Source: Takakia lepidozioides
Taxonomy: Eukaryota > Plantae > Bryophyta
Direction of reading: 5' to 3'
Length of the DNA: 64,000 bases
NCBI GenBank assembly: GCA_030704615.1
Contig: CM060732.1
Span: 21,824,001-21,888,000 of the forward strand
The notes under the pieces are model-generated. The model searched no databases. It was given only the letters and a program-made list of their open reading frames with translations, and was not told where the DNA came from. Positions 33,650 through 58,969 of this stretch are shown here, piece after piece. The number at the start of each line of letters is the position of its first letter. The stretch's first letter is position 1. Position numbers and translations under genes: made by a program.

Positions 33650-34339
33650 AAAGATGTATGCATGATTTGTGCGGAGCAGGGGTAGAATGTGGGTTCAGAT
33701 TCATTCAAGAAGGTTGGATTTTAAGCTCAAGATTAGCTATGGTTTCTTGTGCATCAATAGTTGGAAGAAACCTACATGGGTAGATGGTGAACTAGAAGCT
33801 GCAGCAACAGCGGCACAGTTGATAAAATCAGGCACTGTTAATGAAGGTACTTTTTTCAACACATTTCATCCTATTTTTTTCTCTTATTAGAACCGGCCCT
33901 AATTCCATGTTGAATTCTGCAATGGTGACTTTGACATGCTATTGCCAATGTGACAACATGAAAGTATCCAGATACAGGTAACAGAGACGAGGAGAGGCTG
34001 TGGAAAGAATACTTTTCTGATCCCAGTCAATGTTGGGACAACCAAGGCCAAAAGGTGAATGCCTGTTAGATCAGAGAGTAGCAAATGCAATTCAACATAG
34101 GAATTAGTGTGATAAGTTGAGTTGGGTGTTTCATAGAACAAATCTAGGCTGTCATTGTCAGCTGCTAGCAGCAAGGCAAAGATGAATGCATGATTTGTAT
34201 AGAGGCATGGATAGTTGAAGGAGCAGGGGGAAAGTGTGGGTACAGAATTATCGAAGAGGACCAAATTTCAAGCAGAAGAATACCTATGATTCCCTGTGGA
34301 TCAATAGCTACAAGAAGCCTACATGGTAGATGGTCAACT
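33650..34339 (+). pseudogene. Two further diverged copies of the PPR 5' module; the second is the target of the Gypsy insertion
   Basis: gtggatcaatagctacaagaagcctaca..gatggtcaact resembles 21850-21960 and 33690-33836, and continues after 46804 (aactaaaggcagcagctgcagcggcacagttgataaaatcaggcac). Confidence 0.65.
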
Positions 34340-34665
34340 TGTCAAGTTATTTTACCACTAGTGTGAAACTAGCTAGGAAATAGCTATCTTTTACATATTG
34401 ACATTTGGGATTGGCCCAAGTGTCAATCCAGGGGTCAAGGCAGATTTAGGCCCTGGAGTGGTTATCTTCACGGCAAGCGCGGGAGACTCATCTTTCTCGA
34501 GTTGAGCCTCACCGCGCCTAGCTATGGCGCCGTAGTGTGGATTCCCCATGGCGTGGGGTGCACTTGGCTTGACTTGTATTTGAGTGATGAGGTTATATAT
34601 GCATGAGTTTATGCTTCAGCTTTGTGAGCTCGCATGAGCTTGTGCTTGTATTCTTCTTCTTTATC
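34340..34665 (+). repeat. Terminal repeat A1 (326 bp)
   Basis: Matches 46288-46613 with two substitutions seen by eye. Rich in short hairpins, TATA-like ttatatat near 34593. Confidence 0.95.
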
Positions 34666-36199
34666 ACTCGAGAAAGGTGAGCTCGTATCTATGAGTGCTA
34701 GATACGAGTTAGTTGTAGCACTTGTGGTTTTTGCTTGAGAATGAGAGAAACCAAGTTGTTATGCAAGGAGCACCGTGGAGCTCTTAGTTGTTAGAAGCGG
34801 AGGCGATGTGGGTTACGAGGTGGTAGACCTTGGCATTCGATCTTCAGCTTCAGAGATGAAAGCACCATGCTGCAGGTAATTCCAGAGCACCTTGATGGTT
34901 TCAGATTGTGTACATGCATGAGCAAGCACGATTGGGAAGAGGACCAGTCAAGAGCAGATTATAGTGGATTTGGTGGCAAAGCTGAAAACTGGACTTGGGA
35001 ATGCGAGCTTTCATTATGTGAAGGATTGCAAGACCAAGCGAAAGGGCTGATTTTGCTTGGGGCAAATCAGTGCACTTTGTGGAGTATGGTGAGATTGGGT
35101 TTCAATCTCGAGCTTCAGCATTGAGAGGGCTCTTGTCATGGCAAGAGCAGGGCTGGATCAGGAGCTAAGAGGTGCGGCAAGGCCATGGAATGTGCACCTA
35201 GGGTTTCAGAGCTTGGAAGAAGAGTTCTTGCACCACAAGAGAAGTGTCTTGTGGTTGGAAATGTAAGCCTTAGGGTTTCAGGAGCTTGGCAAAGGCTATG
35301 GAGTGCTTAGTCTTGTCATAGAGAGCATCAAGGAGCCAAGGAGCCAAGATAGGGGGCTGATATCTCTTGTGTGAAGAGGTTGCATGTGTGGAGCATGTAT
35401 TCAGCTCATTGAAGCTTCCATCTTCAAGCTTGGAGGGCAAGCAAGGAAGAGGGAAGGGCTGACTTCCCTTATGTGAGGGCAATGTATGTGTGGAGCATGC
35501 TATCAGCCTGGTGAAGGCTTGCACTTTTAGGTGTGGGAGTGCAAGAAAGGAAGGAAGGGGCTGGTTTCCCTGTAGGGCATGTAGAGCATGCTTTCAGCCT
35601 GCTGAAGCTTGTATTATCAGGTTTGTGGGTGCAAGAAATGAAGCAAAGGAGCTGATTCTCTTATGGTGAGAGTGGGGCATGTGTGGAGCATGCCTTCAGC
35701 CCATTGAGGCTCTTGTTTTCAAGCCTTAGAGAGCTAGAACGGAAGGTCTAGGGCTGGTTTCCACTTGGAGTGAAAGAACAGCACTTGTAGGGCCTATGTG
35801 AGTTGGGGTTTCAACTTCAAGCTTGAAGGGAGCGCAACTCTTGAAGCAACAGGTGTAGAGGGCTGGAATAGGCTCTAAGACAGATGCTATGGCCAATGAG
35901 GGGAGTGCTTGAATGAGTGCTCACAAGGGCTGGGAACCAGCATGGCTTGGTTGTTTGCCATTGAGTTTAGTGGCGTGTTTGGGAGGCTAAGTGAGAAAGA
36001 AGGCTTGGTTTGTGGCAACCACCTCATGGCTTAGGGCTACTATGGTGGTGTGTGGGAGCCGAAAGAGCAAGGATACCTTGCTAATTTCCTCACAGCCACC
36101 ATAGCTCGGTGGAAAGAAGCCTAGAGTCTAAGAGACACAAACCCTAGCTTGGCGTGGCTAAACCCCTTGGAGAAATGGCTAAACTGCCAGAGCGGCCAT

Positions 36200-37790
36200 G
36201 TGTGGGGCTGTGACAGGCTGTGGCAAGCTGTGACAGGCTATGCCCAGTGGCCTGTGGGGCTGTGACGGGCTGTGACAGGCTGTGGCAAGCTGTGACAGGC
36301 TGTGATGGGCTGTGATGGGCTGTGACAGGCTGTGCCCTGTGCCCTGTGGGGCTGTGACGGGCTGTGTCAGGCTGTGACAGGCTGTGCCCAGTGGCCTTTG
36401 GGGCTGTGACGGGCTGTGACAGGCCGTGCCTGAGGCCTTTGGGGCTGTGACGGGCTGTGAGGGGCTGTGGACAGGCTGTGCCTGTGCCCTGTGGGGCTGT
36501 GACGGGCTGTGTCAGGCTGTGTGGCGAGCTGTGACGGGCTGTGACGGGCTGTGACAGGCTGTGCCCTGTGCCTGTGGGGCTGTGGCAGCTGTGACCGGCT
36601 GTGATGGGCTGTGATGGGCTGTGACAGGTGTGCCCTGTGCCCTGTGGTGCTGTGACGGGCTGTGTCAGGCTGTGACAGGCTGTGCCCAGTGGCCTTTGGG
36701 GCTGTGACGGGCTGTGCGGGGCTGTGACAGGCTGTGCCCTGAGGCCTATGGGGCTGTGACGGGCTGTGACAGGCTGTGCCCAGGCCTTTGGGGCTGTGGG
36801 GGCTGTGAGGGCTGTGAGGGGCTGTGACAGGCCGTGCCTGAGGCCTTTGGCTGTGACGGGCTGTGAGGGGCTGTGACAGGCCGTGCCCATGGCCTTTGGG
36901 CTGTGACGGGCTGTGAGGGGCTGTGACAGGCCGTGCCTGAGGCCTTTGAGGCTGTGAGGGCTGTGAGGGGCTGTGACAGGCCGTGCCCTAGGCCTTTGAG
37001 GCTGTGACGGGCTGTGAGGGCTGTGACGGGCCGTGGCAAGCTGTGAGGCTGGGATGGGCCGGGATGGGCTGTGACAGGCTGTGACAGGCTGTGATGGCTT
37101 TGGGTGCTGTGTGCCGGGCTGTGAGGGGCTTGGGGCTGTGACAGGCCGTGCCCATGCCTTGGGGCTGTGAGGGGCTGTGACAGGCCGTGCCTGAGGCCTT
37201 TGAGGCTGTGATGGTGTGACGGGCTGTGAGGGGCTGTGACAGGCCGTGCCCATGGCCTTTGGGCTGTGACGGGCTGTGAGGGGCTGTGACAGGCCGTGCC
37301 TGAGGCCTTTGAGGCTGGAGGGGCTGTGCTGTGGGGGCTGTGTGACAGGCCGTGCCCTAGGCTTGAGGCTGTGACTGGGCTGTGTGGTGGGCTGTGGCAA
37401 GCTGTGACGGCTGTGATGGGCTGTGCTGTGATGGGCTGTGACAGGCTGTGCCCTGTGCCTTGTGGGCTGTGACGGGCTGTGTGAGGGGCTGTGTGACAGG
37501 CCGTGCCCATGGCCTTTGGGGCTGTGACGGGCTGTGAGGGGCTGTGACAGGCCGTGCCCATGGCCTTTGGGCTGTGTGAGGGGCTGTGAGGGTGTGTGGG
37601 TGTGAGGGCTGAGCTGCCTGTGAGGGGCTGTGACAGGCCTGCGTGCTGAGGCTTGAGGCTGTTGAGGCTGTGTGGAGTGGGCTGTGAGGGCTGGGGCTGT
37701 GACAGGCCGTGCCTGAGGCCTTTGAGGCTGTGACGGCTGTGAGGGGCTGCGACAGGCTGTGCCCAGTGGCCTGTGGGACTGTGACGGCCT
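36200..37790. repeat. About 1.6-kb array of ~10-bp GGCTGTGAC(A/G) units in the element's 5' leader
   Basis: Continuous ggctgtgac/gggctgtgag variants with higher-order caggccgtgcc..ggccttt units. Confidence 0.95.
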
Positions 37791-38530
37791 GACCAGTGAG
37801 CTGTGTGGGCCTGTGCTGGTCTGTGGTGGCCCGTGTTGACCTGTGGACGGCTTGTGCTGACTCGTGGAGGCACTGGTGGACTGCCTAAGGACTGGCATGT
37901 GGTCTGGAAGGCCGAATTTTGAAGCTCGTGGAGGGCGGTTTGAGGAGTATCTTCATGATATTCCCATGGTCATGCAAGTGAGGATAGAGAGGAGAGGCAG
38001 AGTGTTGGGATGAGAGCATGCTGGGGTTAGGCATTGCTTTAGCTTCTCTTCCTCGTAGTTTCCACCCTCTCATTAGGCCAAGACCTTTCCGTAGGTGGAG
38101 GCAAGAGTCAGTCCGGGTTTGGGCTGGGGTGTCCTTGCAGGAGCAACACCGTGGAGTTGTTTTTGGTGTGGGGGAGTTGTCGTTCGGATTTCTTGTGTTT
38201 GGATCCCCTCCATACCTGCATGCTTGACTGTGCGCCATGCTAGTTTTGTGTGGGCGCTTGTTTTTATAGGTGATTGGTCCGGATTTGATCACCGGCCAGT
38301 CCTAGAGCATGCTGTCGATGGTGAGGCTGGGGTGATGACCAGCCAGACCATCATTGTTTCTCCTGTGGTGAGGTTGGAGGTGATGACCAGCCAACCATAG
38401 GAGTGCTTGCGGTGGATGCAGGTACAGGTGTAGGCTATGTTAGGAACTTAGTATTCCAAACCATAAGCCGCAACAGGTTCTCTACCCGGTTACCTTGTGG
38501 AGAGGGGGTTAGGGACATGTTCATGACCGG

Positions 38531-40444
38531 TTGAGTGTCAACACGGAGGTGCCACTAGTTGCTGGGGACAGTGCCGGTTCGAGCACTAGCGATACTAGTG
38601 GGTACACGAGACGAGGTGTGCGGTTTAGGCCACCTTCACCTCCTGTGTCTTCCACGGAAGGTTCTGATTCGGATTGTGAATCAGGAGGGCTCATACCGGC
38701 GGTGCAAGTTGTTTCTTTGCCATTGTTGTGGGACACAATGGAGGAGATGTATGGAGCTACCAAGGGGCCACGAAGGTACTCTGGGGCGGTGGGCACCATT
38801 GAGTTGGATGATTTTATCCAAGAGTTTGATAGTTGGTGTGATTTGCAGCAAATGCGCAATCCACAACTATTTACGCCGTTCATGGCATGGAAAGGGCTGT
38901 TTCAGCACCTTGAGGGGCCGCCTATGGATGATTACCATGAGTTCAGGCGGGGGCATGAGGTTGAGATCGAGGAGTGGAGGATGTACTGGTCACCCGACTA
39001 TGTCTCCATCACTAGGGGCACTAGAGCCACGAGGGCAGTGGCTACACCTGCCGCTGCACTGGCAGCTTCAGCAAGTAGCAGTGGGACTGGTGGTACAGTA
39101 GCTACGACATCCACCCAAGCCACTACCGCACCAGCACTAGCACCCGTGCCTGCATTCAACCCTGTTGTGGAGTTCTTCGAAGAGTTGAGAGGGAACTACC
39201 AAGGGGTGAGGACAGAGAAGTTGCGGAGCTTGCAAGAGTTCCAACGGAAGCCGACCGAGAGCTTGAGGGAGGCTTTCACTCGCATGAGGCGCTTGATAAA
39301 TGTAACCCAAGGGGTTACGGAAGCTCAGGCAGTCCAATTCTGGTATGGGATATTGGACAAGGAGCTGAGGAGAAGGGTGCGGGATGCAACTCTCCTACAA
39401 GCGGCCCAACCCACCTTAGCAAATGTGTTTTTGCTGGCAGAGCGGATAGAGCTCAACATGGTGGAGGAACGAGTGGTCATGGTGGGATTTGCTAAGGAGA
39501 CACCACGGGGTAGTGGTGCTCCTAGCCAACCACTACCTCAACGTGCTCAAGGCAACAAGGGGGCTCAGGTGAAGCTCAGGGAAGGGCAGAGAGGACCTCA
39601 GATGCAGGGGTCTCTCCCTTCATTTGCTGGCCAACAACGGGCGGATGTGGTGTGCTGGACATGTGGAGGACCCCATGTCAAGAAGGATTGTCCAGAGGGA
39701 GGCAAAGGGCCGGCACATGCATAGCCTGCACAGTTACAGTGTGGGCATTGTGGCAAACACGGGCATGGAGAGGCTCAGTGTTATGGTTTGCATCCTGAGT
39801 TGCGCCCAGGCCAGTTCCAAGGGAACAATGGTGGCCGGGGGCGAGGTGGAGCAGCCCAGAGAGGACGAGGTGGCCAGCCACGAGGTGTAGGCCAAGGGCA
39901 AGCTCAACGTGGCCAAGGACGTGGAGGTCAGGGTGTTGACCAAGGCATGGCCAACCGGCTTCAGCAGCTAGAGCAGAGGCTCGCTGCCATGGCTACAGCT
40001 CAGGTGGTACCGGCTCTAAGGCCGGATGGTCCACCTCCTGCTCCTGAGGGAGGAGATATGGGAGGCATGGGATTCATGTGTGGAGCAGCACTACCACTAG
40101 TGCAGGTGGAGTCTGCTGCAGCCGTGACTCGAGGAGCAGCACGAGTTCCTGAGCCACGAGGTGCAGAGGTGGAGTTGGATCCACAGCGTGGGGAGGCAAG
40201 CCGTCAGGCTAGGCTTCCTCAGTCATTCACATTGGCGGAGACAGTGTCGACGCCATCCATGGCACCTAGTTCTCGCCCGACTGTTACCGAGGCGGAGGTC
40301 ACTATGCCATTGGGGAGAGCTACACGGGTAGCACCACTACCTAGTGTTGCCAAGGCTACGGCAGCTAGTGTGCTGCTAGGAGCGGCCACATCTGTGTGCC
40401 AGGCTCCATTGTTCTCGGCTACCATGATTGCGACGCCGGGGTAA
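38531..40444 (+). CDS. gag: Gag (capsid plus two zinc knuckles), interrupted by one in-frame TAG at 39722
   Basis: FQRKPTESLREAFTRM capsid motif, CWTCGGPHVKKDC, and after the stop CGHCGKHGHGEAQC. ORFs 38531 and 39788 are in the same frame. Confidence 0.85.
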
Positions 40445-42702
40445 GACCAGCTGAGGTGTTCAGGCTGGCAGCTACACTCTGTGAGAGTGGGGAGGTTACT
40501 TCATCTTCTGCGGAGATAGTGGGAGGTGTAGTGCCGGAGGGATCCTCGGATTTGAGGGTCAAGACTGCCACGGCGGCGCCATGGCAAGCTGCAGCTGCCA
40601 GGTTGATGGAGCTGCCAGCTAGGCCAGCCATTGAGCGCGCCATGGTGACACCTGGAGTTGTCATGTTAGACAACCAGGATGGCATTTTCTGTTTGAGTGG
40701 ACCGGCAGGCAAGAGGTACCGGCCACTGCGAGTCTTGTTGGACTCGGGAGCTCAGCCACTGATGCTGGGCAGAGCTGCTATTGCAGGCTTGGGCCTCACG
40801 GAGGCGGATATGGAGCCTTGTCCTTTCCAGATACAGACGTCTCTGGGAGGATCGGAGCAGGCTCGGGGCATGACACGGCATGAGTTGGCTATCAGACTAC
40901 GGCCGGATCACCCTACAGATGGCTCAGTGATGCGAGCCAAGGCCATTGTGACAGACGCAGTCTCATACGATGTCCTGGTTGGTGGGGCAGTGTTGTACCC
41001 CATGGGCTTCACCCTGGATTTTTGGGAGGAGTCAGCTTCCTATAGGCCTGCATGGCAGTCAGGGGAGGGCCGGCGTGTGCAGCTCCCTGTGACGTTCATA
41101 GGAGGAGTTGCGGTTGCCCAGCGAGGCAAGATGCCGACACTAGCAGCATTCACAGCGGCAGTGAGTTGGCCTAGAGAGTTGCTTGAGGGCAATGCTCATT
41201 CAGAGGATGTACCACCTCCGGGAGAGCAGGATGACATGTATGGTATGGCGGAGTTGCCTACCATGGTTGCTCAGACTCCATTGTGGGGCACGAGCAAGGA
41301 TTTGCAGCGGGATGCTGATCGACGGGTGCAACAAGCCTGGGTGGAGGCTTTTGTACCGTCAGGAGAGGAGGAGAGTGTGGGGATTGCACCAGGACCACCT
41401 CAATTGTCTCCATTGGACACCACACCTATTGTGTGGCAGTCTCCGGATGAAGGCATTTGTCTTCTGGACTTGTTTGGCGGGATCAGCACCGGATTGGCTG
41501 CTGTGTTACAGGCAGGTGTACGAGTTCGGCGTTACCTGTATGTGGAGAGGGATGAGACTGCACGACGCGTTTCACTTCGCCATGTTGCTCAGTTGGTGCA
41601 GCGGTACCCTGAGTTGTTGTCGGTGTCTGCAATTCGTGGATATCAGCAGGCCTTGCCAGCAGACATTTCGTTGCTGGGGGCGCAGGATTTGGAGCGGGTT
41701 GGCTCCATTGATCTGGTAGTGGCAGGTTGGCCCTGCCAAGGGCATTCATCAGCCGGGCATGGCAATGGATTGCGAGACTCGAGGTCGGGTCTGTTTTGGG
41801 AGATGGTGCGGGTTTTGCGCCACTTGCAGCTTCATCAAGCTGTATCTCCAGCATACATCTTGGAGAATGTGCCACTGATGGGCGATTCTCGGGCCAGGGT
41901 GATGGCCAGTGTGCATCAAGTCCGGTCGTGGCTTGGGTCAGCAGTGTTGCTAGATGCAGCTACAGTGGGGTCACGGGCTCATCGTCCACGGCTATGGTGG
42001 ACTAACATGATGCCACCCGCACTGCTCAAGCGTGCATTTGATGGGGTGCAGCGGCCAGCACATCTCACAGTGGATAACATTCTGGACACAGGGAGGCAGT
42101 CTCAACGTGTGAGACACGATGACCGTTCGCCTTTGGCAGTGGTCAACAAGGTGGGTCAACCACGAGCAGCATTACCTACACTGCTCAGCTTCCCAGGATC
42201 GCATGCTTTCCGGGATAGTGGACCTGGCCTCCTGTGGGATGCTCAGTTGCAGCAGTTAGTGGAGCCTAATGCTGACGAGCGTGAGCGGGCAATGGGTTTT
42301 ACCACTGGTACCACGGCGGTGTCGTCTCTTTCTGAGGCATCACGTCGTCAAGTGTTGGGGCAAGCAATGGATCTCAATTGCTTGACCTGGATTATCAGCT
42401 TGGCTCTAGCTGAGCAACGCAGAGTGCGGAATACACTTCCCTCAATGGTCTCTCTGCCTACCGAGACGGTACAGGCAGTGAGTGGGGGCGAGCATATGAG
42501 GACCACGGGGTGCATGCATCCATGGCACACGTGGGAGGTGCTCGAGGTTCAGAGGGAGTTGGCAGCCAAGGCGGCTGTGATGGATGAGGTTGGGGATTCT
42601 TCTCGAGTTGAGGAGGTCCTCAAGGATGAGATGATGGGGCAGGATGATGCCTTGTCATTGACTGAGCAGGTAGGGAGTACTGCTCAAGAGGTTGCAGCAT
42701 AG
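40396..42702 (+). CDS. Aspartic protease plus DNMT3-like C5 cytosine methyltransferase (DNMT about 41455-42410)
   Basis: VLLDSGA protease site at 40741. DNMT motifs I (LDLFGGISTG), II (YVERD), IV (GWPCQ), VI (ILENV), VIII (AHRPRLWWTN), IX (ERERAMGF) and X (RRQVLGQAM) in canonical order. Confidence 0.92.
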   Translation: MPGSIVLGYHDCDAGVRPAEVFRLAATLCESGEVTSSSAEIVGGVVPEGSSDLRVKTATAAPWQAAAARLMELPARPAIERAMVTPGVVMLDNQDGIFCLSGPAGKRYRPLRVLLDSGAQPLMLGRAAIAGLGLTEADMEPCPFQIQTSLGGSEQARGMTRHELAIRLRPDHPTDGSVMRAKAIVTDAVSYDVLVGGAVLYPMGFTLDFWEESASYRPAWQSGEGRRVQLPVTFIGGVAVAQRGKMPTLAAFTAAVSWPRELLEGNAHSEDVPPPGEQDDMYGMAELPTMVAQTPLWGTSKDLQRDADRRVQQAWVEAFVPSGEEESVGIAPGPPQLSPLDTTPIVWQSPDEGICLLDLFGGISTGLAAVLQAGVRVRRYLYVERDETARRVSLRHVAQLVQRYPELLSVSAIRGYQQALPADISLLGAQDLERVGSIDLVVAGWPCQGHSSAGHGNGLRDSRSGLFWEMVRVLRHLQLHQAVSPAYILENVPLMGDSRARVMASVHQVRSWLGSAVLLDAATVGSRAHRPRLWWTNMMPPALLKRAFDGVQRPAHLTVDNILDTGRQSQRVRHDDRSPLAVVNKVGQPRAALPTLLSFPGSHAFRDSGPGLLWDAQLQQLVEPNADERERAMGFTTGTTAVSSLSEASRRQVLGQAMDLNCLTWIISLALAEQRRVRNTLPSMVSLPTETVQAVSGGEHMRTTGCMHPWHTWEVLEVQRELAAKAAVMDEVGDSSRVEEVLKDEMMGQDDALSLTEQVGSTAQEVAA

Positions 42703-45700
42703 CAACCACGGGACGCGTCCTCTACCTCTAAGCCCACTGGACTTAAGGTTGTAGTTACGGAGGACAATTGGGAGCCTGACATTGGACCCATTGTCACCGG
42801 AGGAGAGAGACGACGTATACGGCGGTTCCTGAGGGCTTACAGGAATTGCTTTGCCTTCAGTTTGAAGGACTTGGGAGCACTGAAGGGTCAAGAGATCCGT
42901 ATTGAGTTGGCCACTGACACGCCAATCTTTCGGAGACCCTATAGATACAGTGACATGGAGAGGTCTTTGATTCAGATGAGGACTCAAGATCTCTGGGAGG
43001 CAGGTTTGGTGGAGCTCTCTGGTGGAGAGTATGCTTCAGCCACAGTGATGCCAGCCAAGAAGGATGTCTATGGCAATTGGACGGAGAGACGTATGTGCGG
43101 TGATTACCGGCCTGTAAATCGTCAGACCAAGTCCGATAAGTATGCCATGCCAACACCAGAGGAGATCTTTGATGCCATCGGGCATGCTAAGGCCTTTAGC
43201 ACTTTGGATTTACGATCCGGATATCACCAGTTGCCAATCAAGGAGGCGGACAAGCAGAAGACGGCATTCTGGGGGATCAATGAGCACGGCAAGGATTGCC
43301 TATATCAGTGGCGGTTCTTACCATTTGGGCTTAAGAATGCTCCTGCAGAGTTTCAGAGAGTCATGGATAGGATTCTAGCAGGGGTGGACTTTGCTCGGTG
43401 CTACATAGATGACATCATCATCTTTAGTGTTACGATGGAGGAGCATGAGAGACACCTTCAGGTGGTATTGGAGCGCTTGAGAGCGCACGGATTGAAGTTG
43501 CATCCGGGGAAGTGCAAGTTTTTCCACAACCAGATTGAGTATCTGGGTCACATGATATATCCTGGAGGATTGGGGGTACAGCAGACTAAGGTAGAGGCCA
43601 TTGCACAAATTCCACGCCCCACGGATGTGAGCCGAGTTCGAGCTTTCATGGGGTTGGCAAACTATTATAGACGGTTTGTCAAGGGATTTAGTACCATTGC
43701 AAAGGCTCTAACCAAGCTGACCAAGGTGGACCAGGAGTGGCAGTGGGAAGATGAGCAGGAACGAGCTTTTCAAGAGCTCAAGGCGAGGTTGACCTCGGCG
43801 CCTATCTTGAGACGACCTATCAGGGGGCGTCCCTTTCAGCTGCATACGGATTGGAGCATGCTGGGGCTTGGAGCGGTGCTCACACAGGTGGATGATGAGG
43901 GAAGAGAGTTCGTAGTGGCTTACGCTAGCCGCTCGAACAACGCTGCAGAGGCTAAGTACAGCTCATATGAGGGAGAGTGCTTAGCTGCAGTGTGGGCCGT
44001 GGCACACTTCAGGTGCTATCTATACGGCAATCTTTTCACCCTTGTCACGGATCACCAGCCACTCAAGTGGTTGATGGAGTCAGACAAGCTTACAGGGAAG
44101 CTTGCACGGTGGGCACTTATACTCCAGGAGTATGACTTTCAGGTTGTGCATCGACCGGGTTTGGTCAATCGGGATGCGGATGGATTGAGTCGCAATCCAT
44201 GCATGAGCCAGCAGGATGACACTGGAGCTCGGTGGCATGGTGAGACGGACGAGGAGATGGTGCCGGGATGGCACGCATCTGCATTTTTGTGTATCTTGGC
44301 ATCGGGAGGTCAGATTGGACCTACAACAGGGATGACTGTAGACGGAGTGTCTGAGGACCCTGAGGCTAGTGATGAGCTAGGTGGTGCCAGAGATATACAT
44401 GAGGATTCGGCTGTGTTGGACTACCTCCGCACGGGAGACACGGCAGCCATTGTGACTGCCAGGGAGAGGGATCGGATCCTGCAACGAGCCAAGAGGTTCA
44501 AGTGGGAGGGGATACACCTACTTCGAGTGTGGGAGGATGGTCGGGTGAGGATTGTGCCTCACCCCACACAGCGTGCACGGTTAGTGCGGCATGCCCATGA
44601 GGAGTTGGGGCATTTTGGAGTGCGACGCACTCACAGTTTACTGCAGGGGCAGTATTGGTGGCGTGGTATGCATACAGAGGTGCAACAGTTTGTGGCTAGG
44701 TGCATGGTGTGTGACAGGGTGCGTGCTTCATTCAACGCCCCTACACCACAGTTGCATCCTTTACCTATCATGGGATTGGGCTACAGGTGGAGTCTTGACT
44801 TCGCAGGACCGTTGCCACTGACTATGCGCCACCACAGATATGTGTTGGTGATGGTGGAGCACTTCTCCAAGTGGATTGAGTTGGTTCCATTGCCTGACAA
44901 GGCTAGTGAGGGGGCTGCGTATGCATTCTTGGATCGTGTGCTTAGCCGATTTGGTGCTCCAGCTGAGGTACTCACGGACCAAGGGAGAGAGTTCTTGGGG
45001 GAGTTTCAGGCTTTGTGTGATAAAGCCTTGATAGACCACCGCACCACTTCTCGGGATCATCCTGAGGCCGATGGCTTAGCAGAGAGAGTTGTTCAGACGG
45101 TGAAGAGGGGTTTGCGCAAGTATGGCTTGCAGAAGGGACACCTAGGAGATTGGGATCTTCAGGTTCCTTGGTTAGCCATGGGCTACAGGTTCAGCAAACA
45201 AGCATCACTTGCCTCCTTCTCACCATATTTCCTTCTCTTTGGCCGAGAGCCGGATTTGCCTGCAGCCATTCGTAGGGACACTGCTCAAGTCCTTAACCTT
45301 GACGATCCGGACGTGTGGGTACGTGCATGTGATCAGCGTGCAGAGTTGTTCAAGAAAGTCATGCCCATGGCTTTTGAGAACCTTGCCATTGCACAGCACC
45401 GTGATACGTTGAGGTATGCCACTATACGTGGTGGAGGATATCGTCCTGGGGTTCGGAGGTTTAGCCCTGGTGACTATGTTTATTTGCAGCAGACTGCTCC
45501 TACGACTCTGGATGTTACTGCAGGGCGTGTTATTCTGAGGGTTCGAGAGGTGTTGCCCTCAGGGGTCCTGATCTTGGAGGGTCGGGATGGCATGACTTGG
45601 AAGGACCATGTGCGTAATTGTGCGCCATGTCACCTTCCCAATGTCGATGGCAGAGTTGACCCAAACTTGGCAGTGGTACCTGCAGGTTTGAGGTGCATGC

Positions 45701-45837
45701 TCTGTGGGTCTGCCAAAGGGGCAGCCACCATGCTGGTGTGTGATCGATGCTCAAGGGGTTGGCATATGGGATGCTTGACACCACCTCTTGAGAAGGTTCC
45801 TGACGGAGATTGGTTGTGTCCACACTGCTTGGGATAG
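42703..45837 (+). CDS. pol: RT-RNase H-integrase with a C-terminal PHD finger (45694-45828), same frame as the PR-DNMT ORF
   Basis: [33 protein letters not shown] (SLDF, LTDQG, LAERV), and the C4HC3 finger CMLC..CDRC..H..C..WLCPHC. Confidence 0.95.
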   Translation, partial: QPRDASSTSKPTGLKVVVTEDNWEPDIGPIVTGGERRRIRRFLRAYRNCFAFSLKDLGALKGQEIRIELATDTPIFRRPYRYSDMERSLIQMRTQDLWEAGLVELSGGEYASATVMPAKKDVYGNWTERRMCGDYRPVNRQTKSDKYAMPTPEEIFDAIGHAKAFSTLDLRSGYHQLPIKEADKQKTAFWGINEHGKDCLYQWRFLPFGLKNAPAEFQRVMDRILAGVDFARCYIDDIIIFSVTMEEHERHLQVVLERLRAHGLKLHPGKCKFFHNQIEYLGHMIYPGGLGVQQTKVEAIAQIPRPTDVSRVRAFMGLANYYRRFVKGFSTIAKALTKLTKVDQEWQWEDEQERAFQELKARLTSAPILRRPIRGRPFQLHTDWSMLGLGAVLTQVDDEGREFVVAYASRSNNAAEAKYSSYEGECLAAVWAVAHFRCYLYGNLFTLVTDHQPLKWLMESDKLTGKLARWALILQEYDFQVVHRPGLVNRDADGLSRNPCMSQQDDTGARWHGETDEEMVPGWHASAFLCILASGGQIGPTTGMTVDGVSEDPEASDELGGARDIHEDSAVLDYLRTGDTAAIVTARERDRILQRAKRFKWEGIHLLRVWEDGRVRIVPHPTQRARLVRHAHEELGHFGVRRTHSLLQGQYWWRGMHTEVQQFVARCMVCDRVRASFNAPTPQLHPLPIMGLGYRWSLDFAGPLPLTMRHHRYVLVMVEHFSKWIELVPLPDKASEGAAYAFLDRVLSRFGAPAEVLTDQGREFLGEFQALCDKALIDHRTTSRDHPEADGLAERVVQTVKRGLRKYGLQKGHLGDWDLQVPWLAMGYRFSKQASLASFSPYFLLFGREPDLPAAIRRDTAQVLNLDDPDVWVRACDQRAELFKKVMPMAFENLAIAQHRDTLRYATIRGGGYRPGVRRFSPGDYVYLQQTAPTTLDVTAGRVILRVREVLPSGVLILEGRDGMTWKDHVRNCAPCHLPNVDGRVDPNLAVVPAGLRCMLCGSAKGAATMLVCDRCSRGWHMGCLTPPLEKVPDGDWLCPHCLG

Positions 45838-46095
45838 TGGCAGTGGACATGACTGGAGGCAGCTAACAAGACATGGGAGGCCAAGCTCATAGGAGTCAAT
45901 ACATGAGATCCCAAGCTCAAGTTCACAGGTTGCAAGACGGCGACTAACGATGGGGCAACTCTTGCACCCGGCCTCTTGATCTATCGAGTTTGAGTGTAGT
46001 AGGGATAGTGGTGGAGGACTTAGTGAGGCTATGGTCACTATCACATCTTGTGGCTACCTGGACTTAGAGGGACCTAAGCACCAGCTAGGGGGGCG

Positions 46096-46804
46096 ATTGT
46101 GTGGACTAGTGACTGCCATAGTGGGCAGCGTAGTGGCAGCCTAGTGACTGACTAGTTGTAGCCTAGTGGTTGGACTAGTGGCTGGACTAGTGGTAGACTA
46201 GTGGTATACTAGTGTGTGGTGTGCACATGTGTTGTGTGGTTTTGGACAGCGATGTAGTTGTGTAGCGATATGTATGCGCACGACAGCTGTCAAGTTATTT
46301 TACCACTAGTGTGAAACTAGCTAGGAAATAGCTAGCTTTTACATATTGACATTTGGGATTGGCCCAAGTGTCAATCCAGGGGTCAAGGCAGATTTAGGCC
46401 CTGGAGTGGTTATCTTCACGGCAAGCGCGGGAGGCTCATCTTTCTCGAGTTGAGCCTCACCGCGCCTAGCTATGGCGCCGTAGTGTGGATTCCCCATGGC
46501 GTGGGGTGCACTTGGCTTGACTTGTATTTGAGTGATGAGGTTATATATGCATGAGTTTATGCTTCAGCTTTGTGAGCTCGCATGAGCTTGTGCTTGTATT
46601 CTTCTTCTTTATCTATTGTGTGGACTAGTGACTGCCATAGTGGGCAGCGTAGTGGCAGCCTAGTGACTGACTAGTTGTAGCCTAGTGGTTGGACTAGTGG
46701 CTGGACTAGTGGTAGACTAGTGGTATACTAGTGTGTGGTGTGCACATGTGTTGTGTGGTTTTGGACAGCGATGTAGTTGTGTAGCGATATGTATGCGCAC
46801 GACA
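46096..46804 (+). repeat. Right terminus: B1 (46096-46285) - gc - A2 (46288-46613) - t - B2 (46615-46804)
   Basis: B1 and B2 (190 bp each, with ACTAGT-containing repeats) look identical. The B1/A2 junction is the palindrome GACAGCTGTC. Confidence 0.95.
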
Positions 46805-47780
46805 AACTAAAGGCAGCAGCTGCAGCGGCACAGTTGATAAAATCAGGCACCTCAACCATGATCACAGCTTCCGAAAGAGTATCAAGAGAGGGACTCCACA
46901 ATGCTTTGTGAGGCAGGTAGACCAATGAGGCATATAGCAGATTCAGATACGTATGTCTGTCTCTTGTACACTCACATTATCCAAAGTGGATTCACGCCAA
47001 GTGTTTTTCTCCTCAACATTCTTGTCAAGATGTATGTTAAGTGCGGGGGGGGGGCATCATGGATGCTCACCAAGTGTTCAACGGAATGCCTCAACGATCT
47101 TTAATCACGTGGAATATAATGTTGGCAGGATTTACCAAATGTGCAAGCTTGGCAGCTCTGGAAAAGGGTGCAAAGAGGTCCATGATGACATTGTCAGAGC
47201 TGGAATTGTACCCAATGTCATTATGAACTTTGCCCTGGTGGACATGTATGCCAAATGTGGGAGCATTGAGGATACGAAAGGAGTGTTCAACAATATGGTT
47301 GAACGAGATGTGGTGTTCCACGCGATGCTGGTAGGGTATGCACAGCAGGGATCCGGTATGAAGGCTTTGGAGACGTATGAGCAAATGATGTAGGAACGGG
47401 TGAAGCCCAACCCCATCACATTTTGCGCGTTTGCAATTGTGTGCAAGCCTGGCAGCCTTGGAAAATGGCAAAGAGGTGCATGACAACATCGTCAGAGCTG
47501 GAATTGTACCAGATGTGATTCTCAACAATGCCCTGGTGGACATGTATGCCAAATGTGGGAGCATCGAGGATGCAAGGGAGCATTCGACCATATGGTTGAA
47601 CGAGATGTGGTGTTCCACGTGATGTTGGCAGGGTATGCACAGTAGGGATGCGGTATGAAGGCTTTGGAGACGTATGAGCAAATGATGTGCGAAGGGGTGA
47701 AGCCCAACCACATCACGTTTGTGTGTGTTTGTAGTGTGTGTGCAAGGTAGCCTTGGAAAAGGGGAAAGAGGTGCATGGTT
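46805..47780 (+). pseudogene. PLS-class PPR pseudogene (continuation of the interrupted copy)
   Basis: KEVHDDIVRAGIVPNV..ALVDMYAKCGSIED occurs twice, with stops and frameshifts. Confidence 0.85.
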
Positions 47781-48647
47781 GCATCGCGAAAGCAAATTTC
47801 TTCACAAGTCCCATCCCAGGGATCATTTAATATACTGAGTGGTGCAATCCCAGACAATCTGGCAGACTTGAGTGTCTTCGGGTTAGCACAAGTTTGAGTA
47901 TGCTTTCTTTGGAGATTGGTACAGGGGAATAGGGATGTCCACAACATTGAGCTTGACAGGTTAGCCATGGCAACATCGTTTCCATCATGTGTCAGGAAGT
48001 GTTGTATGCGTATATTCACTCTAGACCTTCTTATCCCAGTAATTGCAAGTACATTCCAAGTTCTGGAACTACAGTGAGACAGCTGCCTGTATGATCCTTT
48101 GGTGAGTAACAAGAAGAGTTCTTCGTCCAAAAGCTAGATCACAGAATCAATGCACCTTTAAGTGCTAGGTTGGGCTAATGCACAAGGATGAAGCAAAAGA
48201 TATTTACCTGAGAGGTATTTTCTACATGTTGGCAACTGGAATGTCAAACTTGTTCTCCTACCCTCAGCCTCATGCACCTCAGTCTCATGCACTTCCCCAT
48301 GAGACTCTCCATGCTAGAAAATTCATTGATGTGGAGTAGTTGTTTTTGGGCTACTTGTCGAGGGCCCAAATTCTGTCTTGTATCCTGCTTTCATTTGTTC
48401 CATAAGTTTTTTGAGCTGTCCATGGAACTATTTTCTTTCTGCATGAGGATTTCCAATAAGAAAATTCTTTGATGATTGTTGTTTCTTTCTGCTTGTTGCG
48501 GACCCAACTTTTTCTTGTGCATCCTTTTTGCGCCTTATAAACTCTTTGAGTCTTGGACATTGCAAAGTTTTGTTTTTTCCCCGGTGAAGTATCATTTCAT
48601 TTCCATTCAATTAATTCATTTCGCATTCATTTAAAGTTTTTATGCAG

Positions 48648-52064: not shown

Positions 52065-55000
52065 TGTCGCGCACCTCACTTCGGTAAGCTCCCCTTCAAG
52101 TCATAGTTACTCGCTTTGATGCGCGCGCCTGACTCCCAACCTGGCCGCCCAGGCCAACTTGGAGCTTCGGCTGCTCACCGGGACATAACGGTCCCCCTTC
52201 GCTGCCCTCTAAACCCTCCACCTATTTGGGACTAGGAGAATTCCCTTTGGTAGATGGCAGTCCGGAACAGCTCCCCACTCTTTGGTCGCTTTCCGGCTCG
52301 CTCGCTTACTCACTAGTTTTTGGTCACCAACGGGCTTGCACCGTTCTCGGGTTACTACTCCCTATATATACTTCTGTAGCTGTCCGCGGGGGTTTCACAA
52401 CCCATGCCATTTTATGGCGAACCACCACGAAAACCCTCGACTCCCGGTGATGAGTCGCGGTGAGTCTTGGCCCGCTCACCACGGCCCCTATGGACCGTGA
52501 TGAGTCCCAAGACTCCCCACGACTCCCACCACGAGGTCTCCGCCCCATGGTGAGTCCTATGCCACCCCCACTAAGTCCCGCTAAGCTACCACCACCCCTT
52601 GTGGAGCCACCCCCACCGCAACCCGGTGTGCGGGGCTCCACCTAGTGAGCGCCTCCGCCTCCTTGAGTGCCTTGGGCACTCAAGGGTGCTTCAGCCCCCC
52701 ATACCTATCCTATCGCTGCCGCTGCCCCCACCACAGGGCAGCCCCTCATGTGTCCCGACCCCCTGCCCTCAAGGCAAAGGGCCGCGACACACACCCCTAC
52801 CAACAGGGAGTCGATGTCCTCATCGACTTGTCCATTTTGTAGAAACGAACATCCAAGTTGTGGCGTCCCACATCAAGGAGTTTGTTTCCGTACCATGGCG
52901 TCCCATGGCAAAGAACCAAACCCCACACTTGACTCTACTCTCCACTAGCTAGTTCGGCCGACTTCCTCCAAGTCCCGGCCAAGGGTGGAGCCTCTCCAGC
53001 TCCTCCCAGTGCACTCTTCTTGGCCTACTTCAAGGCCAAGGAACGATCCTCCCCGAGGATCGAATCGCCTTACTGCAACAACATTGCTTGCGACCGCTCA
53101 TGATGCCGCTTTTGGCATCACCTTGAGCAAGGGTTCCCTGGAACCCTCTTTGACTAGGAAGATACCTTGAACCAACCGTGCGCCCCAATCACTACAATTG
53201 GGTCCGCCTTGGAATGCTGGCCTGAGGTACGGGAACACGCCGAAGCCGCACTACGACTTCGTCCCGAGGCTACACGATTATAGTACGTGAACGGAAGCAC
53301 GTAGCTTCCGCGTTAGCCCGCACTACAAGGCAACCCCCTCGGTAGCGCAGTTATAGTACGCGCACGCGCCAGGTGCGCACTAGCACGTGAACTCCCAAGA
53401 AGGCGCAAGTTTCCTTGCCCCTTGGATGGGGGTCACCCGATTTCGGCACTACGCAAACACACGATTAACCCAATTTACCTCTCCCACTTTTATAAGCTAG
53501 CATGCATTCTACACACTAGCCAACCATACCATGCATCACATTCCAAACAAAATAGGACGCACAACATTTGGAACCATTTCATTTATAACAAATTTTGTAC
53601 AATACAAGTTTTTGTAATCGGATTCCTAAGCTAGCTAAGCCGGGCTAAGCATGCATTTCCTCCCCCACGCTCCAAGGTTGATGTCCCCATCAACGCTTCT
53701 TCCGCTTTTGAGGTCGCCCTTCGAAAGCTGCAACCGCCTCGGATGCGTTTCCCATTTCTGAGGCACGCACCCAAGATGCCTCCACATGATGATAGCCCTT
53801 CCATTTGACGAGATACTCCGTTTCTCGGTTCTTGAACCTCCTCGACTTAAGTATTGCCTCCACCTCGTACTCAGGTTCATTTTCATGATCCAACAGCATA
53901 GGTGGCGGACGCAACACTTGATGCCGATTCGGACGTGCTTCATCTTTGAAGTAAGGCTTCAAAAGGGAGACATGGAATACTGGGTGCACCTTGCTGTTTG
54001 CCGGCAGCTCCAATTCATACACATCCTCATTCATAACCTTCCGAATGCGAAAGGGACCCGCATACGGAGGTACGAACTTCGGACTCACTTCCGGAGGTAG
54101 TCGGAAATTCTTGATGTTCAACCAGACCTCTGTGCCTGCCTCAAACTTCACTTCCCTCCGCTTCCGATTCGCCTGCCTTTCATACCGTTTCCTAGCTTTG
54201 GCAATGTTGTACTTTGCGAGCTTCAACAAACGCTCGCGTTCTTCCAGTACCGCCGCTACTGCCGGTTCCTCAACGTCCTGGGCGGCCCAACTTGTCGGCA
54301 CCAGAGGTGCTTTTCCATAGACCAATACAAAAGGGGAAACTCCCGTTGCGGAGTGTTCTGTGTTATTATAACAGAACTCTGCCGCGTCTAAGTGTTCCAC
54401 CCAGTCTGTTTGGTCTGCCGACACGTAATTCCGCAAGATTGCTTCACTACGGAATTCACTCTTTCTGTTTGGCCGTCGGTCGTAGGTCGGAAGGCGGTGC
54501 TCATCTTCAGCCTCGTCCCCATCTTCTTCCAAAGTGTCCTCCAAAATTTACTCGTAAACTTTGGATCGCGGTCCGAGACAATATCCTTCGGGACTCCATG
54601 ATGCTTTAAGACGTGGCGAAGTAAAGTCGCCCTGTCTCCTGCGCCGTTGCGTCTCCTTGGTGGGGATGAAATGGCCCATTTTACTGAACCTACCACCACC
54701 ACCATGATTGCATCGAATCCTTTTGACAGCGGCATAGCAGTCATGAAATCCATCGAGACGCTTTCCCAAGTCCCCTCTGGAATCGGCAAGGGTTGTAACA
54801 GCCCCGCTTGCTTTTTGTACTCGCTCCGGTTTTGTTGGCATGTGGTGCATGTCTTGACATACTCCTCTGCCTCCTCCCTCAGTTTGGGCCAGAAATACTC
54901 TTTCTTCAAGAGTGCCGCAGTGCGCTTGGCTCCGCCGTGGCCCGCAAGCGGGCTATCATGGCATTCTCTCAAGAGGCTATCTCTGATCCCTCCCTTCGGC

Positions 55001-58000: not shown

Positions 58001-58969
58001 TCCCAAAAGGCTGCCGGCATGGGAGGCATCTCTTGGTTTGTCGGAGCTCTCAAGGATTCCTCGGGCTCCGACTCCTCGGATTCCTCCCGCTCTTGAGCGG
58101 CCTCGTTTTCGGAAACATGCATCGCTTCCTCAAACGGCCGCCTCGGTGACACGTCGCCCCCATCGGGCTCACCAGGATCATCATCTTTTGGGCCGTTCCG
58201 CTTTCGCTTCGGCTTGCCCGACCCCATGATGAGGCCAATCCCAAGGACGATCGCGTACTGAACTCTAAGCTCTGATACCAAGTGTCGCGCACCTCACTTC
58301 GGTAAGCTCCCCTTCAAGTCATAGTTACTCGCTTTGATGCGCGCGCCTGACTCCCAACCTGGCCGCCGGGCCAACTTGGAGCTTCGGCTGCTCACCGGGA
58401 CATAACGGTCCCCCTTCGCTCCCTCTAAACCCTCCACCTATTTGGGACTAGGAGAATTCCCTTTGGTAGATGGCAGTCCGGAACAGCTCCCCACTCTTTG
58501 GTCGCTTTCCGGCTCGCTCGCTTACTCACTAGTTTTTGGTCACCAACGGGCTTGCACCGTTCTCGGGGTTACTACTCCCTATATATACTTCTGTAGCTGT
58601 CCGCGGGGGTTTCACAACCAGCCATGCCATTTTATGGCGAACCACCACGAAAACCCTCGACTCCCGGTGATGAGTCGCGGTGAGTCTTGGCCCGCTCACC
58701 ACGGCCCCTATGGACCGTGATCTCCCCACGACTCCCACCACGAGGTCTCCGCCCCCATGGTGAGTCCTATGCCACCCCCACTAAGTCCCGCTAAGCTACC
58801 ACCACCCCTTGTGGAGCCACCCCCACCGCAACCCGGTGTGCGGGGCTCCACCTAGTGAGCGCCTCCGCCTCAAGGGTGCTTCAGCCCCCCATACCTATCG
58901 CTGCGCTGCCCCCACCACAGGGGCAGCCCCTCATGTGTCCCGACCCCCTGCCCTCAAGGCAAAGGCCGA
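52065..58969 (-). mobile_element. Ty3/Gypsy chromovirus, full length, with many 1-bp frameshifts
   Basis: LTRs at 52065-52789 and 58283-~58969 (TGTCGCG...CGCGACA), tRNA-iMet PBS, gag knuckle CFNCGEPGHMAKKC, VDTGA protease, YIDD, HTDASD, integrase and chromodomain EYEVEAIL..EYLVKWKGY..ASW. Partial TSD atat. Confidence 0.92.
58269..58280 (-). promoter_or_regulatory. Primer binding site for initiator tRNA-Met
   Basis: TGGTATCAGAGC on the minus strand, 2 nt after the LTR-terminal CA. Confidence 0.9.

Follow-up and report, generated by a model that had tools for sequence, protein, structure and literature searches.

The closest precedent to the element described here is KnitGypsy-Dnmt3 of Klebsormidium nitens (de Mendoza et al., 2018; PMC5890265), a Ty3/Gypsy retrotransposon that carries an intronless DNMT3-related domain with intact motifs inside its Pol ORF and has split repeats in the arrangement A1...B1-A2-B2. 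That study takes the methyltransferase capture to be particular to the lineage of K. nitens, and why retrotransposons encode their own cytosine methyltransferase is named as an open question (PMC5890265). Methylation of the cDNA is proposed there for such enzymes; the isolated domain showed no activity in yeast, a result its authors consider inconclusive. The term 'PHD' has 0 occurrences in the main text and three supplement files of that paper, a count of text that leaves Fig. 4c aside. The name Gypsy-DNMT3 for such streptophyte elements comes from a preprint that separates them from the EpiLTRs, which also combine a reader and a methyltransferase in one LTR element (DAM, DNMT and chromodomain), but whose DNMT is sister to DNMT4 and whose reader is a chromodomain (10.64898/2026.05.21.726589).

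PHD fingers have likewise been described in retrotransposons, and a targeting role for them is suggested in PMC6673714 and in the Chlamydomonas v6 preprint (10.1101/2022.06.16.496473). The latter reports Gypsy-7a_cRei, with a PHD in the Gypsy polyprotein that is proposed to steer insertion, no methyltransferase among its listed domains, and insertions 2.6-fold enriched in intergenic DNA. Chromoviruses also carry a chromatin reader at the integrase C-terminus, in their case a chromodomain. In REM1 of Chlamydomonas the PHD lies on a separate antisense ORF. Selgy, which the sequence-only reading of the present locus had named as a further PHD-bearing precedent, was not found as such: the main text of the REXdb paper, to which the search was confined, has no mention of a PHD, and a literature search on a Selgy PHD integrase came back empty. 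That reading did not name KnitGypsy-Dnmt3.

We analysed a stretch of 64,000 nucleotides from Takakia lepidozioides (the window), which contains a Ty3/Gypsy retrotransposon of the KnitGypsy-Dnmt3 kind with a DNMT3-like domain, split direct repeats and a PHD finger. A DNMT in a Gypsy element with split repeats is known already; what is new relative to KnitGypsy-Dnmt3 is a conserved stop codon after the DNMT.

Architecture of the Takakia element

The element, whose features lie on the forward strand, shows the PR-RT-RH-INT order of Ty3/Gypsy together with a DDE integrase, and its full domain order is Gag-PR-DNMT, stop, RT-RH-INT-PHD. A 4-bp target-site duplication, AACT, flanks the whole (34336..34339 on the left, 46805..46808 on the right), and only one AACT is present where the empty site is preserved in a paralogous sequence near 33790. 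The DIRS-like split repeats follow the A1...B1-A2-B2 scheme: A1 (34340..34666, beginning TGTC) is 99.4% identical over 326 bp to A2 (46288..46613), and B1 (46096..46285) is 100% identical to B2 (46615..46804), the right end of the element, both B repeats ending GACA. The palindromic B1-A2 junction GACA-GC-TGTC (46282..46291, without strand) resembles a pre-formed two-end circle junction, and five of the 17 sequences compared carry these ten letters unchanged (window, L002, L003, L081 and L082). A polypurine-tract-like G run directly 5' of B1 (46083..46095) is shared with L002, L003, L007, L010, L011 and L081. We considered whether two nested ordinary LTR elements had produced the A...B-A-B order and rejected this, because a single target-site duplication encloses the entire structure, B1 is preceded by the G run, and relatives show the same junction. 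Inspection by eye revealed no tRNA primer-binding site after A1.

A long 5' leader, with a tandem array of a 10-bp unit and its multiples at 36201..37868, precedes gag (38513..40444; CCHC knuckle at 39740). Two lesions break this gag copy: a stop (39722-39724) that about 99% of the depth of copies in the sequencing runs lacks, and a frameshift near 40437, where the indel is polymorphic among copies. It is followed by an aspartic protease (40720..41058, DSGA at 40741), assigned by family profile, with a weak match to Asp_protease_2 in the relatives P0447 and L081, and by the methyltransferase (41449..42423). The second ORF (42703..45837) encodes RT (YIDD at 43402), RNase H, an integrase with an HHCC finger (44590-44712) and a D-D-E core, an SH3-like barrel and the PHD finger (45694..45828). 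Downstream, a conserved non-coding motif with approximate bounds 45930..45975 aligns in the window, L002, L081 and L082; an Rfam search of the element, this motif included, gave 0 matches.

K. nitens P0466 shares the PR-DNMT-RT-RH-INT order. PAT/Ngaro elements use a tyrosine recombinase and have no DDE integrase, whereas the Takakia element has an rve integrase, and none of the four ORFs scanned matched a recombinase domain. Selgy elements are described in the REXdb paper as short, with an internal region taken up by the ORF, unlike the present element with its 3.8-kb leader. A neighbouring chromovirus at 52065-58965 of the window has two LTRs, in contrast to the split repeats and DNMT described here, and is just 29-37% identical. 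The element family is very high-copy in the runs of the host (104,326 contigs in run X2), no relatives were present in the viral contigs searched, and the sole insertion site seen lies within gene-like PPR-family sequence rather than obvious heterochromatin.

The stop codon between methyltransferase and reverse transcriptase

The sequence-only reading had placed the PHD and the methyltransferase in the same polyprotein. This needs correction, as an in-frame TAG at 42700-42702 divides the DNMT ORF from the RT-integrase-PHD ORF, and the two could share one chain only via readthrough. The bases that follow, CAA-CCA, place the codon in a TMV-type leaky context (CAR-YYA; 42700..42708), and CAR-YYA by itself directs TMV readthrough (PMC2194720). 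That paper also summarises MuLV gag-pol and SIRE1 pol-env; as in TMV, an in-frame stop there sets off a rare extended protein from the abundant upstream one, the arrangement predicted for the Takakia element. Here the stop stands after protease and methyltransferase rather than after gag, and readthrough is predicted from sequence.

None of the four runs examined showed a letter other than those of TAG at 42700-42702 above a threshold of 2%; run X1 may come from the source sample. In run X7 the base directly after the stop is changed in a single diverged contig. The intact relative L081 (69% RT identity) has one stop in 2,210 codons (6.6 kb), and it falls at the same place, as TAG-CAA-TCA. We therefore rejected mere decay of the window copy: the TAG shows no variant at that threshold and recurs in an intact relative, whereas the gag stop is not shared. 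Across the three families covered for the DNA context, the relatives read TAG-CAA-CCC (L001), TAA-CAA-CCC (L002) and TAG-TAA-CCC (L018), and L016 is decayed there; the full CAR-YYA match is found in the window and L081, while the L001/L002 family, with CAA-CCC, differs at +6 and carries an ATG three codons 3' of the stop. Of the 507 stop triplets in the window element just one precedes CAR-YYA, as does one of the 299 in L081; in each case it is the in-frame stop. As a control we used a second family (about 45% identity, L003-L067), in which several loci have a TAG 69 codons upstream of RT; it was rejected as a conserved stop and judged to be decay because L006, L007, L009, L013, L021 and L067 have a sense codon there. 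Folding of the sequence 3' of the stop, in search of a stimulatory stem, gave z-scores of -1.7, -2.5, -0.7 and -0.4 for four sequences, a set without L081.

Phylogenetically, the window DNMT belongs to a clade with 99/91 support in which 10 of 10 member ORFs terminate after the DNMT. P0446-P0451 are Gag-PR-DNMT proteins whose C-terminus lies 110-138 aa past the DNMT. The sister clusters contain RT-first ORFs of steady length (1031-1056 aa) on 9-14 kb contigs. One of 11 rows in the RT clade of the window, P0014, is continuous from DNMT to RT, and its DNMT branches elsewhere. In KnitGypsy-Dnmt3 the DNMT lies inside the Pol ORF (PMC5890265) and the partial P0466 is unbroken from DNMT to RT, in contrast to the conserved, frame-preserving stop of the window element. 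Since other clades, P0466 included, likewise hold DNMT and RT within one ORF, a Gag-level DNMT is not required family-wide. The trees were built without the K. nitens proteins P0466 and P0150, the latter matched by the RT-INT search.

Taken together, the conserved TAG at 42700 is likely a leaky stop with predicted readthrough, so that Gag-PR-DNMT is likely abundant and RT-integrase-PHD rare. A literature search, with subscription papers, Repbase entries, figures and bioRxiv supplements outside its reach, returned no prior account of readthrough in the Gypsy-DNMT3 family, for which it listed just PMC5890265 and the preprint 10.64898/2026.05.21.726589. Alternatively, the stop could be tight, with Pol made on its own by way of reinitiation, a spliced RNA or an internal promoter; DNMT and PHD would then never be joined in one chain. 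The Tca2 junction has promoter activity in reporters (PMC2194720), and the ATG just past the stop in the L001 family would suit such a route. We nevertheless consider it quite unlikely, as the second ORF of the window has its earliest ATG at codon 85, the conserved feature after the stop is CAA and not ATG, and the two ORFs share their frame in the window, L001, L002 and L081; a 2,173-nt contig, from a run guessed to be RNA and hence a weak indication, also spans the stop gap-free.

The PHD finger and its pairing with the methyltransferase

The finger at 45694-45828 (+), the last domain of its ORF, is a complete C4HC3 module (CMLC..CDRC..H..C..CPHC) that matches PF00628 with an E-value of 1.8e-10 over profile positions 1-47 of 47 (Pfam) and displays all features of the class, namely Cys4-His-Cys3 ligands, a core Trp and the cross-brace fold. 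Its AlphaFold model (mean pLDDT 84.7) superposes on the PHD fingers of DPF2/3, BHC80, ATXR5, ORC1b and BAZ2A at 1.2-1.9 A. All eight zinc ligands are kept at 97-100% in 244 family sequences, and the domain is under constraint (pN 0.26 vs pS 0.79, window against L081). The C-terminal PHD of the integrase is thus a genuine conserved module, as had been read from the sequence, and it does occupy the place of the chromodomain, which the neighbouring chromovirus carries at the equivalent position; Pfam finds no chromodomain at the integrase C-terminus of the window element.

Its ligand preference is less easily assigned. The best solved-structure matches are PHDs classed as readers of unmodified H3. 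Two residues before the His, at what is presumably the position of the H3K4me3-cage Trp, the window PHD has a Gly, and Trp occurs in 0 of 244 family members; the aromatic cage of H3K4me3-reading PHDs (ING2, BPTF, TAF3) is described in PMC4225485. The R2-binding Asp after Cys3 is found in 230 of 244 family PHDs, and the window finger has equivalents of KDM5B L325, D328 and W351 (R2 Asp, hydrophobic strand, A1-pocket Trp). It shares the R2 Asp and the A1 pocket with the unmodified-H3 PHDs of KDM5B (PHD1), BHC80 and AIRE, but differs from them in lacking the acidic K4 anchor before Cys1 (KDM5B D308): the window has Ala, and an acid is present in 2 of 14 close relatives as against 166 of 244 sequences family-wide. 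The equivalents of both D308 and E321 are lost in the PHD subclade of the window, where the net charge is +1 to +6, compared to a family median of -4.

The missing cage and the loss of the K4 anchor in the subclade make H3K4 sensing of the ADD kind doubtful, and H3 binding by these basic fingers could be weak or absent. The PHD might then have ceased to read histones in this subclade and instead cap the integrase SH3 domain, with a role in structure, DNA binding or the binding of a host factor, as basic charge and lost acidic residues would allow. This we regard as very unlikely, given that the finger retains the Asp that binds R2, the hydrophobic residues of the beta-strand and the P-x-G-x-W pocket, and that the UHRF1 PHD binds H3 through R2 whatever the K4 state (PMC3214078).

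DNMT and PHD are both present in 181 of 197 scorable relatives, a proportion inflated because the searches were queried with one or the other domain and because kin share traits; the pairing by itself is ordinary for the Gypsy-DNMT3 family. The two are nonetheless separable, as at least eight proteins have a DNMT without a PHD (P0138/142/143/148, P0367, P0454, P0294 and P0375) and P0093 and P0202 have a PHD without a DNMT. The relatives are labelled liverwort, Coleochaete, Closterium (zygnematophytes) and chlorophyte, so the family range far exceeds K. nitens, whose P0466 DNMT is 45% identical (E 4e-54) to that of the window. The chlorophyte relatives include a Chlamydomonas reinhardtii protein whose DNMT is missed by Pfam. 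A DNMT is seen in CHLRE_09g398141, and one supplement, examined for a link between this protein and Gypsy-7a, gave no match. A large clade, labelled in part as chlorophyte, has the DNMT immediately before the integrase, with a median distance of 127 aa to the integrase zinc finger (n=141); together with the position before RT, this makes coupled and uncoupled designs comparable within the family.

In animal DNMT3 proteins the ADD covalently adjoins the catalytic domain and gates catalysis. The window element resembles DNMT3A/B in bringing a DNMT3-type catalytic domain and a PHD-type finger into one system, but its finger is of the canonical C4HC3 type and belongs to a separate protein product. 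In the model that follows from the sequence-only reading, the PHD would read H3K4me0 like an ADD and bring the DNMT to target chromatin, coupling integration and methylation. The frequent co-occurrence, a readthrough product that would hold both domains, the adjacent placement in the large clade and the mostly acidic PHDs of the wider family (by the residue before Cys1) speak for such coupling. Against it, the conserved stop, RT and RNase H intervene between the domains in the window element, the K4 anchor is rare among close relatives and the finger basic, and each domain persists without the other. We consider the coupled reading unlikely here; its other part, integration targeting by the PHD, fares better, in line with a conserved integrase module and the role suggested in print.

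Tentatively, and with less than even confidence, we propose a wider scheme: a streptophyte Gypsy-DNMT3 clade may have gained a plant-virus-type leaky stop after the DNMT, yielding structural-level enzyme that would pre-methylate new copies, with the PHD losing its H3K4 anchor there, and a sister clade may have put the DNMT beside integrase-PHD, adding Tudor-like and second methyltransferase-like domains. One ancient green-plant family would then comprise decoupled and coupled designs.

The methyltransferase and its probable site of action

Flanked by protease and RT, the methyltransferase is some 3.3 kb 5' of the PHD, and the proposal of a DNMT3-like writer in the element is upheld: the domain matches PF00145 (E 1.3e-12, Pfam), and its closest solved structures are DNMT3A/B (E 1.8e-11). 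As in KnitGypsy-Dnmt3, it is intronless. The motifs FGG, GWPC (GWPCQ at 41725), ENV (LENV at 41860) and RxRxW are intact, motifs I, IV, VI, VIII and X are unpermuted, the structure model reaches a pLDDT of 95.8, and constraint is evident (pN 0.17 vs pS 0.76, window against L001). By its motifs and nearest solved structures it is of the DNMT3-related class, with predicted catalysis.

A programmed stop after the DNMT would mean that the enzyme is wanted in Gag-like amounts, which favours action inside the particle. With moderate confidence we prefer the reading in which the integrase PHD anchors the integration machinery at the unmodified N-terminal end of H3, while the DNMT, likely produced at Gag levels since it is encoded 5' of the probably leaky stop, methylates the element's own cDNA in the particle. 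Most ribosomes would halt at the TAG and release Gag-PR-DNMT, and a few percent would read through and add RT-RH-INT-PHD. As is general for Ty3/Gypsy proteins, the protease would then release DNMT and INT-PHD separately; many DNMT molecules per particle could methylate the new cDNA, and the PHD would grip H3 A1-R2 through the equivalents of the KDM5B residues and would probably discriminate only weakly between H3K4 states. The reader and the writer would thus be two modules acting at different steps rather than an ADD-like unit.

Abundant Gag-PR-DNMT might instead be a nuclear enzyme whose substrate is host DNA or the genomic copies, either silencing the element and limiting its copy number or reshaping host methylation. 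A surplus of enzyme suits a role in trans, host-level effects are raised in PMC5890265 and the copy number in the host runs is very high. This appears decidedly unlikely, as the Gag fusion would predict packaging, domain scans of the window and relatives found no targeting domain alongside the DNMT, and the K. nitens methylome is not unusual (PMC5890265). The base composition gives a further observation on the preferred reading: C precedes G at 27 of 481 synonymous positions in the element, whereas the chromovirus next to it has 37 of 179 (p 6e-8, one element against one other). Host silencing may be an alternative source of this contrast, which is consistent with heavier methylation of the element lineage.

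Domains and repeat structure of the element

The element (34340-46804) is flanked on each side by a duplicated 4-bp AACT; near 33790 a paralogous site without the insertion has just one AACT. The element's repeats are split in the order A1, internal part, G run, B1, A2, B2. Since A1 and A2 differ at 2 of 326 bases and B1 and B2 are identical, the insertion is young. The gag stop of this copy is absent from about 99% of the depth in all four sequencing runs, and its frameshift near 40437 is polymorphic among copies. Positions 41449-42423 encode a C5 methyltransferase (DNMT) with intact motifs (structure model pLDDT 95.8), for which DNMT3A/B are the best solved matches. Downstream, a 1,044-codon frame (42703-45837) holds reverse transcriptase (RT), RNase H (RH) and a DDE integrase (INT) and terminates in a PHD finger (45694-45828). 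This finger is, as the sequence-only reading had claimed, a complete C4HC3 (Pfam PHD, E 1.8e-10); in the AlphaFold model of the integrase tail (mean pLDDT 84.7) it follows a long helix and an SH3-like barrel, and it superposes on solved PHDs at 1.2-1.9 A. Both domains are real and under constraint (pN 0.17-0.34 vs pS 0.70-0.79). The same reading had placed them in one polyprotein; they do not share an open frame, an in-frame TAG (42700-42702) lying between them.

The kind of element is already known, and the DNMT-PHD pairing is ordinary for the family. In its split repeats, Gypsy domains and DNMT3 it fits the published account of KnitGypsy-Dnmt3 (PMC5890265), and K. nitens protein P0466 has the same domain order, with 45% identity in the DNMT. 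PHDs are described as widespread on retrotransposons (PMC6673714; preprint 10.1101/2021.11.30.470311), Gypsy-7a_cRei among the carriers (preprint 10.1101/2022.06.16.496473); the Selgy precedent named in the sequence-only reading was found neither in the accessible text of PMC6317226 nor by literature search. Gypsy-DNMT3 is regarded as a streptophyte capture (PMC12344493; preprint 10.64898/2026.05.21.726589), and the chromodomain-plus-methyltransferase EpiLTRs are assigned another origin (same preprint).

The B1-A2 junction (46282-46291) is a palindrome, GACA-GC-TGTC, composed of the right end, two spare bases and the left end, and resembles a two-LTR circle junction that forms part of the element itself; the G run precedes B1, and no primer-binding site is obvious. 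The exact junction occurs in 5 of 17 sequences examined (window 46282-46291, L002 13364, L003 3436, L081 7051, L082 2413), with decayed variants in loci L007, L009 and L010. By analogy with split-repeat recombinase elements, this suggests that integrase ends may be regenerated from an internal template. L081 and L082 are intact plant-type retrotransposon contigs filed in a cyanobacterial genome bin, most likely through contamination. A non-coding 3'-region motif (45930-45975) without an Rfam match is kept in the window, L002, L081 and L082. At four-fold sites (window 38513-45834; L081) C is kept before A (42-46%) and scarce before G, C and T, a pattern absent from the neighbouring chromovirus. 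An array of 10-bp tandem repeats on the opposite strand (60891-61101) is similar to the element's leader array, with no element coding match nearby.

The stop codon between methyltransferase and reverse transcriptase

Judging from its context in related sequences, the TAG is likely programmed and leaky rather than a product of decay. At a 2% threshold, none of the four runs compared (X1 possibly being the source sample) showed any other letter at 42700-42702, and neighbouring positions vary; one diverged X7 contig has a changed base directly 3' of the stop. L081 (69% identity, RT-integrase) is open over 2,210 codons except for one stop, TAG-CAA-TCA, which coincides in position with the window element's TAG; the amino acids on either side are not those of the window element. 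Stop triplets followed by CAR-YYA, a context that by itself directs TMV readthrough (PMC2194720), number 1/507 in the window element and 1/299 in L081, each being the in-frame stop; the 1/172 in L001 and 2/629 in L002 lie at other places and indicate the chance rate. Decayed copies of one further family read TAG-CAA-CCC (L001), TAA-CAA-CCC (L002) and TAG-TAA-CCC (L018); L016 is unreadable at the stop.

IQ-TREE analysis of 56 of 233 DNMT domains (46 of 52 DNMT-before-RT rows, six long-branched, duplicate or misclassed rows being left out, together with 10 rows drawn at random from the other layout) places the window DNMT in a clade of 10 (99/91), in which all 10 ORFs stop after the DNMT. Nine more rows with such an ORF end are interspersed with continuous ones, possibly through decay or truncation. 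The Gag-PR-DNMT proteins P0446-P0451 (PR, protease) end 110-138 aa beyond the DNMT domain, and the first 84 codons of ORF2 lack an ATG. As weak evidence, no DNMT-RT fused form of the window clade occurs among the long proteins in the matches listed, P0014 excepted; this protein is one of 11 rows of the window's RT clade, and its DNMT branches elsewhere. No 3' stimulatory stem was established. In a control family at about 45% identity, several loci carry a comparably placed TAG; because other loci have sense codons there, it was ruled out as a programmed stop and attributed to decay. No prior report of readthrough in this family turned up in the openly accessible text of papers and preprints.

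The PHD surface and its pairing with methyltransferases

The finger's best solved matches are KDM5B and KDM5A PHD1, ATXR5, DPF3, BHC80, BAZ2A/B, ORC1b, CHD4 and UHRF1, several of which have structures with unmodified H3. Across 244 family fingers all zinc ligands are 97-100% conserved, the R2-binding Asp is retained in 230, and where H3K4me3 readers have their cage Trp, 226 carry Gly and none carries Trp. Aligned without gaps to KDM5B, the window finger has equivalents of L325, D328 and W351 and lacks those of E321 and of D308, which bonds unmethylated K4 (PMC4225485). An acid precedes Cys1 in 166 of the 244 fingers versus 2 of 14 close relatives (11 taken from the tree, three added by identity), and these 14 are basic (net charge +1 to +6, against a family median of -4). 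The finger probably recognises A1-R2 with weak K4 discrimination, for which UHRF1 is the comparison case (PMC3214078), or binds weakly. ADD-like K4 sensing, and with it an ADD-like reader-plus-writer, is therefore doubtful in this element.

Homologue searches used the integrase tail, RT-integrase core and DNMT as queries (best 120 of 349, 120 of 241, 150 of 5,080 and 37 of 37 matches). The closest named relatives among the matches listed are from the liverworts Riccia (84% identity across part of RNase H-integrase), Marchantia and Calypogeia, and from Coleochaete. The host is probably a land plant outside the seed plants. Two layouts occur, PR-DNMT-RT-RH-INT-PHD, as in the window element, and RT-RH-DNMT-INT-PHD, with chlorophytes as its named members; ten sampled DNMTs of the latter group together (100/100), separately from the former. 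Proteins scorable for both traits comprise 181 with DNMT and PHD, 13 with DNMT only and 3 with PHD only, in a table that stop-split elements cannot enter and whose queries favour carriers. On inspection, two of the DNMT-only proteins have a diverged PHD, one looks partial and two are near-copies of another, and one PHD-only protein has a DNMT remnant. At least 8 DNMT-only and 2 PHD-only proteins remain, so that pairing is the norm, not obligatory.

Proteins of the RH-DNMT-INT layout make up a large clade, with 86 of the 150 tree rows, including P0147, P0156, P0176, P0225 and Chlamydomonas P0193 (CHLRE_09g398141v5), whose DNMT was missed by Pfam and found by a family profile. More than 200 aa follow the PHD in 110 of 162 of its proteins, 97 of the 110 matching one profile. 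These tails (P0166, P0135, P0152, P0294, P0375) contain a Tudor-like stretch, with a weak Pfam match in P0294, and a stretch like SAM-dependent methyltransferases. Atlas leads are phage N6-methyltransferase-like clusters (0.86-0.87, below 0.9), and the tails may hold a second methyltransferase, one acting on adenine.

A candidate mechanism and the insertion site

The best explanation, to which we give slightly better than even chances, is that a Gag-level DNMT made by way of the leaky stop methylates cDNA and that the PHD separately tethers integration. Gag-PR-DNMT would be the product of most ribosomes, which would terminate at the amber codon; the minority that read through would add RT-RH-INT-PHD, and the protease would separate the domains, as it does in Ty3. 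The particle, in which the cDNA is synthesised, would then contain DNMT in amounts like those of the shell protein, and the enzyme would methylate the cDNA, as proposed for retrotransposon DNMTs (PMC5890265); the integration complex would be anchored to nucleosomes by the PHD. Synonymous CpG amounts to 27/481 in the element versus 37/179 in the chromovirus serving as same-host control, a loss consistent with heavy methylation, whether by the element's own enzyme or by the host. Counting against this mechanism are other clades without the stop, the gene-like nature of the only target site seen, and the reported inactivity of the Knit DNMT in yeast (PMC5890265), a result that its authors do not treat as decisive. 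The coupled reader-writer model of the sequence-only reading, which we consider improbable, fits better the other clade, whose DNMT lies next to the integrase (median distance 127 aa) and whose PHD is acidic; in the window element the TAG separates the DNMT and PHD frames. What is new is the prediction from sequence that a likely leaky stop ties the amount of DNMT to that of Gag and separates the enzyme from the reader, together with a PHD surface changed in the same clade as that stop.

The chromovirus (52065-58965, minus strand) is frameshifted and has a chromodomain and ordinary LTRs 93.6% alike including gaps. The insertion splits the reading frame of a member of a PPR-type gene family (34150-34339 and 46805-47800) that is repeated locally, with paralogues in the window at 21813, 22865 and 33686. 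The N-terminal motif of this family appears similar to the PDF motif found in ssDNA-binding proteins of organelles.
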